A program made the position numbers and the translations under genes. Source: a virus. From it: 64,000 bases of DNA. This document shows, piece by piece, positions 24,524-62,396 of this stretch (positions within the stretch are counted from its first letter, which is position 1; every line of letters starts with the position of its first letter). A model generated the notes under the pieces. The model worked only from the letters and a program-made list of their open reading frames with translations, ran no database searches and was not told where the DNA came from. The stretch lies in the IMG/VR virus record IMGVR_UViG_3300045003_000080, positions 55,830-119,829 of that record. The stretch is one strand, 5' to 3'.

Positions 24524-24548
24524 GCACGCTGTAAGTGGGCTGGTTACC

Positions 24549-24572
24549 GTGCCGGGGCCGTAGCCCCGGCAC
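24549..24572 (-). terminator. 10-bp hairpin with C(UACG)G tetraloop at the 3' end of the downstream GGY-NN array
   Basis: Minus strand reads GTGCCGGGGC-TACG-GCCCCGGCAC. Confidence 0.7.
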
Positions 24573-24576
24573 CCCT

Positions 24577-24661
24577 GCCAAGCCGTGCCCGGCCATGCCC
24601 CGCCAAGCCGCGCCGCGCTCTGCCGAGCCCAGTCCTGCCACGCTGGGGCGGGCCCCGCCAC
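24577..24661 (-). ncRNA. GGY-NN pentamer array 2 (putative VIPR-type guide RNA)
   Basis: Plus strand GCCAA GCCGT GCCCG GCCAT GCCCC GCCAA GCCGC GCCGC GCTCT GCCGA GCCCA GTCCT GCCAC...: 17 units in unbroken 5-nt register, non-coding. Confidence 0.8.
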
Positions 24662-24707
24662 GTCGCGATCTAGTGCACTCACATTGTACTAACGTGCGTG
24701 GCCATGT

Positions 24708-25256
24708 TCAGACCCTCTGATCAAAGCGTGTTTCAAGGCGTTCGAGCCGGGCCAGGATCTCGGTGCGTTCTTCGGCTGTGCGCTCGTTTTCGCCTCGGAT
24801 CGCGGTGACTGCCGTTTCGAGGTTTCGCTGGCGGACGTCCAGGCTGCGAATGGCGTCAGCCTGACGCTGGAATGCGGCAGCCACTACTTCCAGTAGGTTA
24901 CGCACTCCCGGGTCGGCCCCCGTTAGGTCGACCCGGGTAGCGACTTCGTGTCCTTCGCGAACTGCAAGGGCGGCGCGGCCTTGTTGCTTGCGGGCGAGCC
25001 GTAGGTGACCTACCGCGTCGACGACGCGGTATCCCTTGTCACGTACAACCTCTATCGCGTGGTGGTCCTGTTGTAACAACTCCCGTTTGGCCCGGCGCAT
25101 CGGCCCTTGGATCGTGGGCCGGTCCCGAATTGGGTCCACGCCCAGAGCATCCCCGAGCGCCTCGTAACTCAGCACCTCGTTGACAGGAGTCTCTCGCAGA
25201 AGGTCATAGATGATGCGCCAACGCGCCAGCTCCCCGGTGGCTTGGAACGGGGACAT
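24708..25256 (-). CDS. wHTH plus coiled-coil accessory protein coupled to the RAMP-like gene
   Basis: TGATG overlap with upstream stop; LSYEALGDALG...EVVRDKGYRVV wing motif; C-terminal heptads. Confidence 0.8.
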   Translation of the reverse strand: MSPFQATGELARWRIIYDLLRETPVNEVLSYEALGDALGVDPIRDRPTIQGPMRRAKRELLQQDHHAIEVVRDKGYRVVDAVGHLRLARKQQGRAALAVREGHEVATRVDLTGADPGVRNLLEVVAAAFQRQADAIRSLDVRQRNLETAVTAIRGENERTAEERTEILARLERLETRFDQRV

Positions 25257-25846
25257 CACCGGTACTCGATTTCCGCCACGTAGGTGCCATTCTGTGGGCG
25301 CCAGTCGCCCAGTCCCACGTAAGCGCCAGCAGTGTCGGCGATGCGCTCGATTTCGTGCTTGTCAAGGACGGACGGATCGAACTGGCCCTCGACGTCGGTC
25401 GCCCACTGCGAGAAGCGGGCGCGGCATCGAACGGTCCGTGCGCTGTTGACTTTCACCACCTTGACGAACCGGAAGTTCTCGTTTTCCCAGAGCTTTTCAG
25501 GGTCGCGCGACCCAGGGTACGAAATCGGGTTGACGACGGTGTTGATCAGAAGGCCCGCCTTGACCTTCTCGCCTAGCTTGTGTTTCTTCGCGCCGTCGTA
25601 GAGCGAGCGCCATATGTTTTCCCCCGGCAGGTATGGGCCAGCGTCCGGGTCAGTGTAGAGCGAGCCTAAGAACTCAAGGTAGGCGATCTCCTCGTAGTTT
25701 TCCTCAGTCTTCGACCGCTTTGACGTGCGGGCTTTAAGCGCCTTCGCGGCCGGGTCGAGGGGGTTGGCGAGTCGGCCATTGTGCATCAGGAGCTGGCGCG
25801 TGCCTTCAATGTGGAGCGTGAATTTCTGCGTTTGGAATGTGTGCAT
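25256..25846 (-). CDS. Stand-alone RAMP/Cas7-like protein (Vipr-like)
   Basis: 196 aa from ATG 25846. FTLHIEGTRQLLMHN first strand, PYLPGENIWRSL (RAMP PxIPGSSLKG-like), C-terminal Gly loop AGAYVGLGDWRPQNGTY. No other cas genes adjacent. Confidence 0.75.
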   Translation of the reverse strand: MHTFQTQKFTLHIEGTRQLLMHNGRLANPLDPAAKALKARTSKRSKTEENYEEIAYLEFLGSLYTDPDAGPYLPGENIWRSLYDGAKKHKLGEKVKAGLLINTVVNPISYPGSRDPEKLWENENFRFVKVVKVNSARTVRCRARFSQWATDVEGQFDPSVLDKHEIERIADTAGAYVGLGDWRPQNGTYVAEIEYR

Positions 25847-25874
25847 GGGTGAGCCATTCGTCGGGATTAGTGTT

Positions 25875-25979
25875 GCCCCGCCTTGCCAAGCCACGCTAAG
25901 CCGGACCTTGTTCTGCCAAGCCGAGCCTAGCCGTGCCTAACCTAGCCGGGCCGGGCGTTGCCTGGCCAGGCCGCGCCAG
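25875..25979 (-). ncRNA. GGY-NN pentamer array 1 (putative VIPR-type guide RNA)
   Basis: 21 units starting every 5 nt from 25875 to 25975 on plus; 18 begin RCC, exceptions GCT, GTT, GCG. Preceded on minus by hairpin GCCCAC...GTGGGC (25985-26003). Confidence 0.85.
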
Positions 25980-26144
25980 GTGCTGCCCACCAGAGCTGTG
26001 GGCTAGAAAGACGATAGCGTGGACCGTTTGTTCATGCAAACACGTAGATAAATCATCTGATAATACAGCGCGATGTTGAGTAGAACGGCAATGCATTGTT
26101 TTGCTGGGTGGTGCGAGTGATCCACATGTGTTTACAATAAGCAC

Positions 26145-26342
26145 ATGGATACTATTGTCACGCGGCGCAGTGGCACTCCCGACGAAGCCGTCGAGGTCGC
26201 CATGTTCTCCGACGGTGTCGCTTTGCTCGACACGAAACAGGGCGGCTCGGGTGCGCTGTGGTTTAACCCCGCCACGTTCGCCCAGTTCGTCCGCGACGTT
26301 AAAGAAGGCAAATACGATCCGGTTCCGTCCGTTAATGGCTAA
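26145..26342 (+). CDS. DUF397-family protein
   Basis: SG...AVEVA...GVALLDTK...LWFNPATFAQFVRDVKEGKYD. Confidence 0.85.
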   Translation: MDTIVTRRSGTPDEAVEVAMFSDGVALLDTKQGGSGALWFNPATFAQFVRDVKEGKYDPVPSVNG

Positions 26343-43939: not shown

Positions 43940-44012
43940 GCCCCTGTAGCTCAACGGATAGAGCACTGCACTACGGATGCAGACGTTGCGAGTTCGAATC
44001 CCGCCTGGGGCG
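43940..44012 (+). tRNA. tRNA-Arg(ACG)
   Basis: Cloverleaf; anticodon arm CTGCA-CTACGGA-TGCAG; TTCGAAT; one mismatch each in acceptor and T stems. Confidence 0.85.
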
Positions 44013-44073
44013 CAAACCGGCGACCACAATACGTCCGAACCTATGGAAGTCACGTCGCCGGCCGCAATTCCCC

Positions 44074-44147
44074 GTCCCAGTAGCTTCAGTGGAAAGAGCG
44101 CTGCCCTCCGGAGGCAGAGGTCGCGAGTTCGAATCTCGCTTGGGACA
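44074..44147 (+). tRNA. tRNA-Arg(CCG)
   Basis: CTGCC-CTCCGGA-GGCAG; GCGAG-TTCGAAT-CTCGC. Confidence 0.9.
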
Positions 44148-44282
44148 CGCGCAGCCCGCCACACGCAGCCCGTCAGCGTAGGCACCTGCGCCGACGGGTG
44201 TGGCCCCTCCGGCTGCCCCCGGACTGGCCACACCCGCCCCACCCCGGGGAGCCGTCTGCTGCCAGGCGGCTCCCCACCCCGG

Positions 44283-44354
44283 TCCCCTGTAGCTCAACGG
44301 ATAGAGCGGGGGCTTCCTAAGCCTCGCGTCCCGGTTCGAATCCGGGCGGGGGAG
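44283..44354 (+). tRNA. tRNA-Arg(CCT)
   Basis: GGGGC-TTCCTAA-GCCTC; CCCGG-TTCGAAT-CCGGG. Confidence 0.9.
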
Positions 44355-44371
44355 CGTTAACATATGAATAC

Positions 44372-44445
44372 GGGCCCGTAGCTCAGCAGGTACGAGCGAT
44401 TTCCCCACAAGAAATAGGTCGTTGGTTCGATCCCAACCGGGCCCA
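44372..44445 (+). tRNA. tRNA-Val(CAC)
   Basis: ATTTC-CCCACAA-GAAAT (C at position 33); GTTGG-TTCGATC-CCAAC. Confidence 0.8.
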
Positions 44446-44510
44446 CTCGCCCCTGGTGGCTGTAGCGCAGGCGGTAACCTGCTGTCCAAGCGCCGTCGGG
44501 GGAGACGCAA

Positions 44511-44582
44511 CGCCCTGTAGCTCACCGGTAGAGCGCCGCCACGACAAGGCGGAGGTACCCTGACCAACACAGGGCGGGGCGA
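44511..44582 (+). tRNA. tRNA-Val(GAC)-like RNA with non-canonical T and anticodon loops
   Basis: All four stems pair; anticodon loop ACGACAA, T loop ACCAACA. Confidence 0.6.
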
Positions 44583-44669
44583 CCGGGTGCCACGCGCACA
44601 TCTGCTCCACGCGGTGCGCGCACCCAGGGTGGTCCCGCCCTGCCGCACAGGGACGGGACCACCCGTTAC

Positions 44670-44740
44670 GGACACGTAGCTCAACGGTAGAGCAGCCGGC
44701 TGATAACCGACCGACGTAGGTTCAACTCCTGCCGGGTCCA
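44670..44740 (+). tRNA. tRNA-Ile(GAT)
   Basis: GCCGG-CTGATAA-CCGAC; GTAGG-TTCAACT-CCTGC; some stem mismatches. Confidence 0.8.
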
Positions 44741-45000
44741 CGAGGGCCTGGACGCCGAAGCTGACACGGTGTTCTCCTGAACCCATAGCCGCGTCCGGGC
44801 CCGCACAAGGTTTCCCGGGGGCCGATATCGGGGCGGTGCCCTTACACTCTTCGCCTCTGGGAGCGTCGTTGCGGGAGGCTGTTAACAAAACGGTACCCAA
44901 AGTGCATTCGCTTCCTGCAGCCCCGTTTCTGGCGGCCATGGGTTCACGCGGTTCCCGAACTACGACCGCCGCCAGACCACTTGTAGTATCGTAGCTGGCT

Positions 45001-45558
45001 GTGACGGATCAGCTACCAGGCCACCTGTTGTCGGCGAAACCCGGCGAGGAAAAGATCACCGAAACATGGAGATCACTACTCGGGCAGCTCCAACAGGTGC
45101 GCCGGCAACGCCGCATCAGTCAAATCAAACTGTCTGGTGTGCTCAACTTGATGGTGCTGGAAGGGAAAGCCGCCCCTGCGCTCACCGCCTGGGAGACGGG
45201 CAAGGATCTCCCGGCACTGGGCAACCTCATCAACTGGGCCGAAGCGCTCGGCCTCACGTTAGTGATACGCGAGCCCGGACGGGTCGCGTCGCCTCTCGTG
45301 CCGGAGCGGAACGAAAGCGCGGCTCGTTTCCAGTGCCGCAAACTCGTACGACCACTCGTCGAAGCCCGCGTGGGCAGGGAATGGACGCAGGAAATGGTCG
45401 GCAAGCAGGTGGGCGCCAGCGCATGGTCGGTGCACATGTGGGAGCGAGGGCTGCGCAACCCGCGCCTGATGAAGCTGCTGAAATGGTGTCAACTCCTGGA
45501 GTGCGAGGTAGTGCTGATGCCGCATCACCAGGGAACGGGCACGACCACAGTACGATAA
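45001..45558 (+). CDS. Tandem XRE-type HTH protein inside the tRNA cluster
   Basis: Two HTH units: RRQRRISQ...AWETGKDLP and REWTQEMVG...WERGLRNP. Confidence 0.85.
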   Translation: MTDQLPGHLLSAKPGEEKITETWRSLLGQLQQVRRQRRISQIKLSGVLNLMVLEGKAAPALTAWETGKDLPALGNLINWAEALGLTLVIREPGRVASPLVPERNESAARFQCRKLVRPLVEARVGREWTQEMVGKQVGASAWSVHMWERGLRNPRLMKLLKWCQLLECEVVLMPHHQGTGTTTVR

Positions 45559-45578
45559 TCGTGTATGGTTCGCGTAGC

Positions 45579-45652
45579 GGCGCTGTAGCTCAGTTGGTAC
45601 GAGCGTCTGACTGAAAATCGGAAGGGCCCTGGTTCGATCCCAGGCGGCGCCA
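45579..45652 (+). tRNA. tRNA-Phe(GAA)
   Basis: TCTGA-CTGAAAA-TCGGA; CCTGG-TTCGATC-CCAGG. Confidence 0.9.
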
Positions 45653-45663
45653 CTGTTGTACCT

Positions 45664-45736
45664 GGGGCTGTAACTCAATTGGCAGAGTATTATACTTTTA
45701 ATATAAGAGTTGTGGGTTCGAGTCCCACCAGCCCCA
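45664..45736 (+). tRNA. tRNA-Lys(TTT)
   Basis: TTATA-CTTTTAA-TATAA; GTGGG-TTCGAGT-CCCAC. Confidence 0.9.
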
Positions 45737-45796
45737 CTGTGCTGGTCGCCGTGTTCACGAACGTGTGCCCGAAGCGCATGCGCGACCAGCCGCACC

Positions 45797-45869
45797 GCCC
45801 CCATCTTCTAGCGGCCAAGGATGCAACCCTCTCAAGGTTGTGGCGCGGGTTCGAATCCCGTTGGGGGTA
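45797..45869 (+). tRNA. tRNA-Glu(CTC)
   Basis: CAACC-CTCTCAA-GGTTG; GCGGG-TTCGAAT-CCCGT. Confidence 0.9.
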
Positions 45870-45923
45870 CTGGTCGGCGCCCACGAATGTGCGTTTCCCA
45901 GCCTTTTCCGGCGCCGGCCTCTT

Positions 45924-45996
45924 GCTCCGGTCGTCTAGCGGCCTAGGACGCCGCCCTTTCAAGGCGGTAGCGCGGGTTCGAATCCCGTCCGGAGCA
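45924..45996 (+). tRNA. tRNA-Glu(TTC)
   Basis: CCGCC-CTTTCAA-GGCGG; GCGGG-TTCGAAT-CCCGT. Confidence 0.92.
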
Positions 45997-46165
45997 CCGG
46001 CCGGCGCCCGTAAGCGAAACGTTCTCCGATCACGGTACGGCGCTGGCCGCCCGTTTCAGGCGTGCTACCGGTTAAGGCCAAATGGTAACACGTTTAGTTG
46101 CTGGTCGCGAGGGTGGATGTTATGGTGTTCCCATCCCATTGACCCCTTCGCAGGGAGCGAAAACC

Positions 46166-61077: not shown

Positions 61078-61512
61078 GTGAGCGGAGCCGTCGAACTCGC
61101 ACCGGTACTGCCCTACCAACGCCCCCCGTGCCCACACAGGCCGCCATGCTCCGACTTCGGACGCGACGCGAAACCAGTCGACCGTCACAGCGAGTTCGGA
61201 TGGTCACTGCTCTGCAATGGCGGCATCCTGTTCGACGACGGCGCATTCCTACGTCCACGCCCGCGCGACGAGGCGCGACCGATCCGTGTGGTGCTGCACG
61301 TGTGGGGGCTGACCGTTGCCGACGCCCAGCACGCGGCCAAAGAGGCATACAGTTCCGAACGCACGCGCCGATGGCAGATCGAGGATCTCGCCATGACTAC
61401 CGGCGTGCCGTGCCCGATCCGTAGAGATGATCCACTCCTCGTCGGACACCACGCCGTCGAGGGACGCGTCTGGGCCGCCTACCCCGTGACGGTGACCCGT
61501 CTTGAGGCTTGA
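61078..61512 (+). CDS. DUF5999-like protein
   Basis: CPHRPPC...HSEFGWSLLCNGGILFDDG. Confidence 0.75.
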   Translation: MSGAVELAPVLPYQRPPCPHRPPCSDFGRDAKPVDRHSEFGWSLLCNGGILFDDGAFLRPRPRDEARPIRVVLHVWGLTVADAQHAAKEAYSSERTRRWQIEDLAMTTGVPCPIRRDDPLLVGHHAVEGRVWAAYPVTVTRLEA

Positions 61513-61783
61513 GGAGATATACGACGAGTTCGCGCCCCTCGTCGAAGCGGTCGGCTTCGACCCCACTCCGGCCGCCTTGGAGAAGTGGATCGTGCGCAGG
61601 CGTCGTGGCGAGGAGCCGATCCCGCTCAATGCAGTACGAGGCTTGGCGGATCTGTGCGCGCGCCTGCTTGGGGAGCCGTTGCGGGGGGCGACGCAACCCG
61701 ACGGCGATGGCTATGATACGCAGAATGGCGATCGCCCCTCCGTATGCCCTCTCGCAGCCACCCGGGAGAACCACCATGCCTGA
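61502..61783 (+). CDS. Hypothetical protein
   Basis: Overlaps both neighbours by a few bases. Confidence 0.5.
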   Translation: MRLEEIYDEFAPLVEAVGFDPTPAALEKWIVRRRRGEEPIPLNAVRGLADLCARLLGEPLRGATQPDGDGYDTQNGDRPSVCPLAATRENHHA

Positions 61784-62396
61784 CGTCGTCGAACTGCGCC
61801 CCGGATACACAAGCTTCACCGACCTGACGCGGTACGGCCTGGAGCCCATCCAACGTGAACTACTCGGCGCACACGCCGACACGCAGAACATCGAAGTGTT
61901 CTCCACCGTGCTGGTGCCTGGCATCCTGCAAACCCCGGACTACGCGGAAGCACGGCTGACCGAAGCCGGGAAGATGCTGCGCGTCCCCGTCGACGACGTC
62001 GAAGCAGCAGTGGACGCGCGTATGAAACACGGCGAGCTGCTCCAGACACGCAGATGCCATTTCGTGCTCCACGAGAACGTGTTGCGGACTGCGACGGCGT
62101 CGCCGGCAGTGATGCGGGCGCAGCTCGTGCGGTTGCTCGCGTACGCCGAAGACGAGTCCACCATGTTCGGGGTCATTGAGGCGTCAACGAGGTGCCACGC
62201 TCCGTTGCACGCGTTTTGGATGTTGGACGGGAAGGTCGTCGAGGTCGAGACGTTCTCGGGGCGGCTGGAGGTCGACGACCCGGAGGAGGTGGCGTTGTAC
62301 GCGCGGTTGTTTGCCCAGTTCGGGTCGCTCGCGGCGTATGGGGATGACGCGCTCGATCTGATCGGTGACGCGCTGGACTATTGGGCGGGGAAGTAG
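61776..62396 (+). CDS. DUF5753-domain protein lacking the usual XRE HTH
   Basis: LVPGILQTPDYA...VLHENVL...VMRAQLVRL...EVALY; ATG after GGGAG. Confidence 0.85.
   Translation: MPDVVELRPGYTSFTDLTRYGLEPIQRELLGAHADTQNIEVFSTVLVPGILQTPDYAEARLTEAGKMLRVPVDDVEAAVDARMKHGELLQTRRCHFVLHENVLRTATASPAVMRAQLVRLLAYAEDESTMFGVIEASTRCHAPLHAFWMLDGKVVEVETFSGRLEVDDPEEVALYARLFAQFGSLAAYGDDALDLIGDALDYWAGK

Follow-up and report, generated by a model that had tools for sequence, protein, structure and literature searches.

What is encoded by a two-gene cassette in the genome of a soil virus when each side of it is bordered by a tract of five-base units, a near-constant GGY triplet followed by two freely varying bases (GGYNN)? 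The cassette lies on the minus strand of a 64,000-nucleotide stretch (the window), the right-hand 64 kb of virus record IMGVR_UViG_3300045003_000080, which is complete at 119,829 bp (CheckV estimate 100%), bears direct terminal repeats and has a G+C content of 65%. An initial annotation made from the sequence alone had pointed to a resemblance to phage VIPR (Viral Interference Programmable Repeat) systems. This was correct; three 2026 preprints (bioRxiv 10.64898/2026.04.26.720920, PMC13142463; 10.64898/2026.04.26.720927; 10.64898/2026.10.15.759431) describe the protein Vipr, guide RNAs (vrRNAs) built of GGY/NN units with a structured tail, and accessory vap genes in phages, together with a code that skips one nucleotide, an R-loop triplex and transcriptional silencing of targets in competing phages and satellites. 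Comparison of the sequences indicates that the locus is a VIPR system of the kind carried by phage SUSP1 and Pseudomonas prophages (type II-like), working or recently working, a reading to which we give a probability of about 90%.

The gene product that carries this reading is a protein of 196 amino acids encoded by vipr (25256..25846, minus strand). Pfam holds no match to it, and in PHROGs it matches phrog_4652, of function not known (E 2.2e-51). The sole strong match among PDB sequences is 36pp_D, the "SUSP1 Vipr protein" (E 6.8e-31, residues 10-193 on 5-189). By tblastn, 129 phage records are retrieved, none as much as 60% identical, and in 127 the match extends over 80% or more of the query. 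Among them are phiSUSP1 (33.9%, 5e-30) and Gordonia phage MakoManhole (54.3%, 3e-63); the matches also comprise many Felixounavirus-like coliphages at about 34%, Pseudomonas prophages at 39-40% and four actinophages. At the nucleotide level, no match to the locus is found by blastn in the phage collection. A large protein collection contains 105 Vipr relatives at E <= 1e-5, the best non-self relative being 60% identical. Ten of the 14 SUSP1 residues named in the cryo-electron microscopy (cryo-EM) preprint as contacting RNA or DNA are identical in the alignment: H17, K33, R39, K82, R138, D177, W178 and R179 of SUSP1 correspond to H22, K38, R44, K87, R142, D181, W182 and R183 of the window protein, and E71 and G87 (SUSP1 numbering) are likewise identical. 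The differences are M72N, K88E, C173V and a position printed as T175, which the SUSP1 record gives as V and the window Vipr has as L. That preprint reports that alanine change of K33, K82, R138 or D177 abolished silencing; all four residues are kept here. Two motifs singled out beforehand, LLMHN and GLGDWRP, contain the residues with which SUSP1 Vipr binds G1, G2 and Y3.

The predicted structure agrees with the alignment. An AlphaFold2 model built from 43 sequences (mean predicted local distance difference test score, pLDDT, 96.1) gives 79 Foldseek matches in the PDB at E <= 1e-3, with Csm3/Cas7-type subunits of type III effector complexes making up nearly all of the top matches listed (E 5e-6, TM about 0.5, identity 9-16%); the PDB copy searched ends on 2026-04-08, and no Vipr entry is among the matches listed. 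By homology and by model, then, the 196-residue protein is a Vipr homologue with a Csm3/Cas7-like fold, as its earlier description as RAMP/Cas7-like had proposed. With the type III subunits it shares the RRM-based RAMP fold, the glycine-rich loop and the thumb, but its genome differs in having no CRISPR array, and neither cas6, cas10 nor other cas genes are found among the scanned open reading frames (ORFs) of the window. CRISPR-like regularly spaced repeats are absent from the whole genome and Cas Pfam families from 69 ORFs of the window (the cas scan covered the window and not the 55.8 kb to its left), in line with the original statement that the cassette stands without a CRISPR array or cas operon. 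The guides differ as well: those of type III systems are read in 6-nucleotide segments of a contiguous spacer, whereas the VIPR preprints describe 5-nucleotide units and a gapped code.

The second gene (24708..25259, minus strand, 183 amino acids) overlaps the vipr stop codon by 4 nucleotides. It has 59 relatives; its identity to MakoManhole gp77, which carries the annotation "DNA binding protein", is 27% (E 3e-10). Pairwise BLAST against SUSP1 vap1 is marginal (E 0.028); aligned by hhalign, a profile of 28 homologues matches a vap1 profile of SUSP1, LESphi2 and Medea1 with 96.8% probability (E 2.2e-10, 131 columns). The model of the protein (pLDDT 89.4) has an N-terminal winged helix followed by two long C-terminal helices, and its fold matches, weak as they are, fall repeatedly on winged-helix DNA-binding domains. 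By profile comparison, the second gene is a vap1 homologue. SUSP1 is reported to require vap1 to resist its satellite.

How regular are the flanking tracts? We searched for GG[CT]NN units in all five registers of both strands, with an array caller modelled on the published one. The upstream array spans minus-strand positions 25977-25873 and comprises 21 units, 18 of which conform, the three degenerate ones reading CGC, AAC and AGC; the caller extends it to 25987, giving 23 units with 19 conforming (25873..25987). For the downstream array (24575..24661, minus strand) the caller reports 13 units with 11 conforming at 24639-24575. The initial count of 21 upstream units thus stands, with 18 conforming, while that of 17 downstream units, reaching 24661, requires four degenerate units (GCC, AGC, GAC and AGC). 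These are the only two arrays of at least 6 units in the whole 119,829-bp genome. The other runs genome-wide are nine, each of 5 units with 4 conforming, and in 200 second-order Markov surrogates of the genome the maximum was 6 conforming units, reached in 8. The arrays themselves fold no better than shuffles (z about -1.2), and the NN positions of the upstream guide are 62% A+T.

The layout recurs in relatives. Arrays lie on the vipr strand in 7/7 loci examined from the phage collection and in 18/19 IMG/VR loci; pooled with 15 loci from cellular genomes, same-strand arrays are present in 39 of 41, the two exceptions being short or partial contigs. Together the 39 loci hold 87 arrays on the vipr strand, 6 to 26 units long, and 0 on the other. 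Over their 1,179 units the two NN positions carry 0.07 and 0.01 bits and use all 16 dinucleotides; the GGY positions carry 1.74, 1.55 and 1.09 bits, a conservation partly imposed by the caller. GGYNN arrays with differing NN in the flanks of homologues, the check that had been proposed for this locus, are therefore what the relatives possess. Among cellular (prophage) loci, the nearest relatives come from Planomonospora, Streptomyces, Streptosporangium and Piscicoccus. In the interval between array and vipr start an A/C-rich, CAAC-like motif is often seen (window 25847-25872 and loci L001, L008, L010, L018, L019, L050 and L052); over its first 8 bases the window flank 25847-25872 resembles that of the Desulfosarcina locus L050.

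Might the pentamer tracts act as DNA, as Vap binding sites or an origin-like field of iterons, instead of as guide RNAs? A DNA-binding protein is encoded beside them. However, the arrays have a strict polarity relative to vipr (87 against 0), their NN positions are free, unlike those of operator sites, and for the homologous SUSP1 system the preprints report guide RNAs by small-RNA sequencing, co-purification and cryo-EM. We hold a DNA role to be very improbable.

The sequence-level hallmarks of VIPR are all present except a common structured tail, and the vap1 homology and the 34-40% identity of Vipr to its counterparts in SUSP1 and Pseudomonas prophage LESphi2 would fit a place in type II (the SUSP1 / P. 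fulva clade). How would such a locus work? For the SUSP1 system, small-RNA sequencing, co-purification and cryo-EM of RNA-bound filaments are reported, with one Vipr subunit per GGY unit. By analogy, minus-strand transcription of the window locus would yield two vrRNAs, along which Vipr protomers would polymerise, one per GGYNN unit, with His22, Arg142 and the Asp181-Trp182-Arg183 loop holding GGY and the NN pairs presented. The NN pairs would then read double-stranded DNA, skipping one base for every two read (NNx), and the R-loop triplex so formed would block transcription of the target, with the winged-helix Vap1-like protein assisting. Likely targets would be genes of a competing mobile element in the actinomycete host. 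We infer transcription, filament assembly on GGY, NNx reading and silencing from the SUSP1 work.

What of the targets? We applied the published criterion of at least 80% of read bases under the 1-nucleotide-skip (NNx) rule. In favour of the VIPR reading, the locus does not target itself: in its own genome the upstream guide scores 24/42 at best under NNx and the downstream guide 16/22, both below 80% and inside shuffled-guide nulls. Neither do relatives appear to target this phage, since the best match of their 82 guides to its genome, 19/26, is not above chance. Several observations weigh against a working VIPR system, the first of them being that no target was found at this level. For the 11-unit downstream guide there are 0 exact NNx matches in IMG/VR, 0 in 185,579 species genomes and 0 in the JGI metagenomes, and no site of at least 21/22 in these three collections or in 787 sampled actinomycete genomes. 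For the upstream guide no target was found in IMG/VR (8-unit core), in 401 Actinomycetes genomes or in 33 rep-xis-int loci. The 8-unit core has 12 exact matches in IMG/VR, every one in DNA of low GC content (31-48%) and none extending beyond 28/42, so that we read them as chance; with 18 units and up to 3 mismatches there is no match in the 401 genomes, and in the 33 rep-xis-int loci there is none above the null.

One lead emerged from the mismatch search, namely that the downstream guide may target xis (HTH_17) of pSAM2-type integrative conjugative elements and would so immobilise them, as the VIPR of SUSP1 does with its satellite; this proposal concerns the target and leaves the kind of system as it is. 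In the 401 genomes the downstream guide reaches at least 19/22 at 11 places in 10 genomes, compared with 0 for a backward-read control, and the four places at 20/22 all lie in codon register on RNVRIPEAAL[DE] of one HTH_17 excisionase family. Among 391 genomes of one actinomycete order (that of genome G003) there are 41 places in 34 genomes, all exactly 20/22, the backward control again giving 0. All 30 loci examined have the same xis motif, mismatch the guide at the same two positions and carry an ORF of 300 amino acids or more downstream; xis itself has a RepSA replication gene on one side and a tyrosine integrase on the other, the arrangement of a pSAM2-type integrative element (RepSA, HTH_17 and Phage_integrase in locus L054). 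Read in codon register, the complementary strand of the 11-unit guide spells L-[KN]-V-R-[IM]-P-[KN]-A-A-L-[DE]. A match of 20/22 is 91% of read bases, above the 80% line and near the 89.2% average reported on the SUSP1 satellite recombinase; the excision recombinase of its satellite is what SUSP1 VIPR is reported to silence, with about 89% of the bases read matching, and this makes the lead attractive.

Yet all these matches belong to one gene family and therefore count as one event, and a null of independent codons expects 0.40 places of at least 20/22 per 3.4e9 positions, or about 1 for all the sequence searched. Not one of the 41 places reaches 21/22, the two mismatched positions being common to the 30 loci scored, and an exact match is absent from the three collections searched. 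The six additional 5' units of the downstream array do not match the site (23-24/34 overall), nor does the upstream guide converge on the rep-xis-int loci. For these reasons, one gene family, the chance null, no 21/22 copy and no convergence of the upstream guide, we do not accept xis as the target; the 20/22 match is within chance, and we regard the proposal as unlikely. When the two mismatched positions are masked, the downstream pattern finds 2 metagenome matches, in the same xis family at 20/22, though this search is circular by design; IMG/VR holds one, weak, relative of the xis protein. As a separate observation, the module of RepSA, an 80-amino acid HTH_17 excisionase with R[NK]VRIP[EQ]AAL[ED] and a tyrosine integrase is conserved in 34/391 genomes, sometimes twice per genome (L054 and 29 more loci: L062, L063 and L069-L095).

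The remaining points on the adverse side concern the RNAs. The stretch occurs in two sequencing runs only, both of soil-metagenome DNA and maybe from the source sample, and neither is an RNA run. The vipr ATG is preceded by no visible sequence of the Shine-Dalgarno type. GG is missing from three of the 21 upstream units, the interval of 26 nucleotides between the upstream array and the vipr start codon leaves no room for a structured tail, and the 3' flanks of the two arrays are dissimilar to each other; the discovery preprint describes an invariable structured tail after the repeats. The downstream array is followed by a hairpin at 24549..24572 (minus strand) that has a 10-bp stem and a 4-nucleotide loop and is not trailed by a run of U; as in the tails of SUSP1, it starts immediately past the GGG next to the last unit. 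Its folding energy of -28.1 kcal/mol, for the 41-nucleotide stretch folded, beats 199/200 shuffles (z -3.6). The hairpin of 6 bp that borders the upstream array on its 5' side (25985..26003, minus strand) has z -1.6, and 11/200 shuffles fold equally well. Thus, of the hairpins said to abut each tract, the downstream one stands out and the upstream one is not distinct from shuffles. The downstream tail (24539-24575, minus strand) also resembles the Rfam family CRISPR-DR29, with 26.3 bits against a gathering score of 39 and E 0.008 in a 2-kb search; the alignment runs end to end over a 9-bp stem, a 4-nucleotide loop and part of the 3' flank. As no CRISPR-DR match was seen in the loci of 31 relatives, we treat this as probably a chance likeness of a GC-rich hairpin.

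Is the system then decaying or partly inactive, its tail-less upstream array a leftover and at most the downstream guide still at work? The 3 degenerate units among the 21, the missing upstream tail and the failure to find a target would fit, and orphan arrays and losses of vipr are documented in the VIPR preprints. But both ORFs are intact with their functional residues kept, and the SUSP1 vrRNA array itself has degenerate units. Moreover, the gap between array end and first in-frame start is at most 40 nucleotides in 14 of the 26 loci with an upstream array (among 39 loci), one archaeal and one deltaproteobacterial locus included; of these 14, two gaps of -2 and two of 25 nucleotides, the latter with a tRNA-like element following, are probably artefacts of start calling. 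As the short gap recurs, the layout looks maintained, and we consider decay improbable, though less so than a DNA role for the tracts.

A tentative explanation, which we think of rather low probability, is that the upstream array serves as 5' leader to the vipr-vap mRNA. By assembling on their own leader, to within 26 nucleotides of the start codon, Vipr filaments would switch off vipr translation; alternatively, the array would have to be cut from the vipr-vap mRNA and serve as a tail-less guide. In the VIPR preprint text accessible, a leader array close to the vipr start has no description, and the corresponding gap is 95 nucleotides in SUSP1 and 112 in LESphi2.

Apart from this spacing, how does the VIPR system of the window compare with known ones? 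It resembles type II VIPR of SUSP1 in its full-length Vipr homologue at 34% identity with GGY-binding and DNA-clamp residues kept, in the vap1 homologue directly downstream, in the same-strand GGYNN arrays up- and downstream of the genes, and in being phage-borne without self-targeting. It differs in that its arrays are GGC-rich, those of SUSP1 being mostly GGT, in having one downstream guide instead of three, in a plain 10-bp hairpin as downstream tail where SUSP1 has a pseudoknot, and in its host, a high-GC actinomycete as opposed to Escherichia. The window arrays are also longer, with 21-23 and 11-17 units compared to the 9-16 or 10-12 reported for the studied clades, a length that is not exceptional because relatives reach 26 units.

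The closest relatives of this Vipr in isolated phages are those of MakoManhole (gp78/gp77, 54%), LittleE of Mycobacterium (gp34/gp33, 45.5%), prophiBWHA-1 (gp43/gp42, 43%) and Trine of Gordonia (gp41, 40.5%). MakoManhole has the same vipr-vap pair, and its upstream array also abuts the start codon. The arrays of the actinophage relatives are punctuated by tRNA-like T-arm minihelices (GGTTCGAnTCC), which the window arrays lack. In these actinophage and related loci the minihelices, each an acceptor-like stem with a T arm, separate the arrays: they lie at 1650-1693 and 2990-3030 in L001, at 2255-2296, 2400-2425 and 3710-3746 in L002, at 2395-2420 in L003 and at 3100-3139 and 3215-3260 in L004, and are present also in L008, L009, L011 and L012. 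One of them, in Trine (L004, 3295-3363), is called an odd tRNA by ARAGORN. Annotated coding sequences for "hypothetical proteins" overlie GGYNN arrays, LittleE gp35 (L002, 2060-2449, opposite strand) and Trine gp40 (L004, 3097-3900), and are unlikely to be true genes. In the records of MakoManhole, LittleE, Trine and prophiBWHA-1, vipr and vap bear no annotation beyond hypothetical or DNA-binding protein.

As to its setting, the cassette, single in the virus record as far as vipr is concerned, lies directly past a plus-strand lysis block formed by an endolysin (GH25 and PG_binding_1) and two small ORFs with hydrophobic segments of membrane type, so that the two-gene minus-strand cassette first described after the lysis genes (25256-25846 and 24708-25259) is in place. 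In order of transcription it contains a weak promoter-like region, the 6-bp hairpin, the upstream array, the 196- and 183-residue ORFs, a promoter-like site, the downstream array and the 10-bp hairpin. The first promoter-like site, read by eye at 26011..26039 (minus strand; TTGCAT, 17 nucleotides, TATCGT; 8/12), is weak and below the threshold of the promoter tool, whose own minus-strand match lies further upstream at 26134-26161. The second, called by the tool at 24683..24710 (minus strand; TGAACA-16-TACAAT), overlaps the vap stop codon directly upstream of the downstream array.

Other genes of the window bear on the host. DUF397 (26145-26342, plus strand, divergent from the VIPR cassette), DUF5999 (61078-61512, plus strand) and DUF5753 (61509-62396, plus strand) belong to families typical of Streptomyces-like actinomycetes, and hint at such a host. 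A cluster of nine tRNA genes occupies 43940-45998 on the plus strand (Arg three times, Val, Ile, Phe, Lys and Glu twice). One 20-mer occurs in four exact copies in the left genome arm (G000:C1, at about 3897, 6624, 17823 and 19952) and another in three inside a 130-bp stretch of the window (at about 40794, 40817 and 40922); both may be regulatory or terminator-like motifs.

What does the locus mean for VIPR biology? The source is a soil actinophage with a complete VIPR system, made up of a Cas7-like protein, a DNA-binding helper and two GGY-NN arrays. It adds an example to a kind published in April 2026 and is no new category, yet it represents an intact VIPR from a high-GC soil actinophage whose protein, at 34% identity to that of SUSP1, keeps every residue shown to matter. 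MakoManhole, LittleE and Trine are isolated actinophages with unannotated VIPR loci and offer possible models in Gordonia and Mycobacterium smegmatis. The longer arrays and the tail-less leader array bear on how vrRNAs mature and how Vipr levels are set; if the leader array does feed back on vipr translation, it would constitute a built-in dosage control of Vipr.

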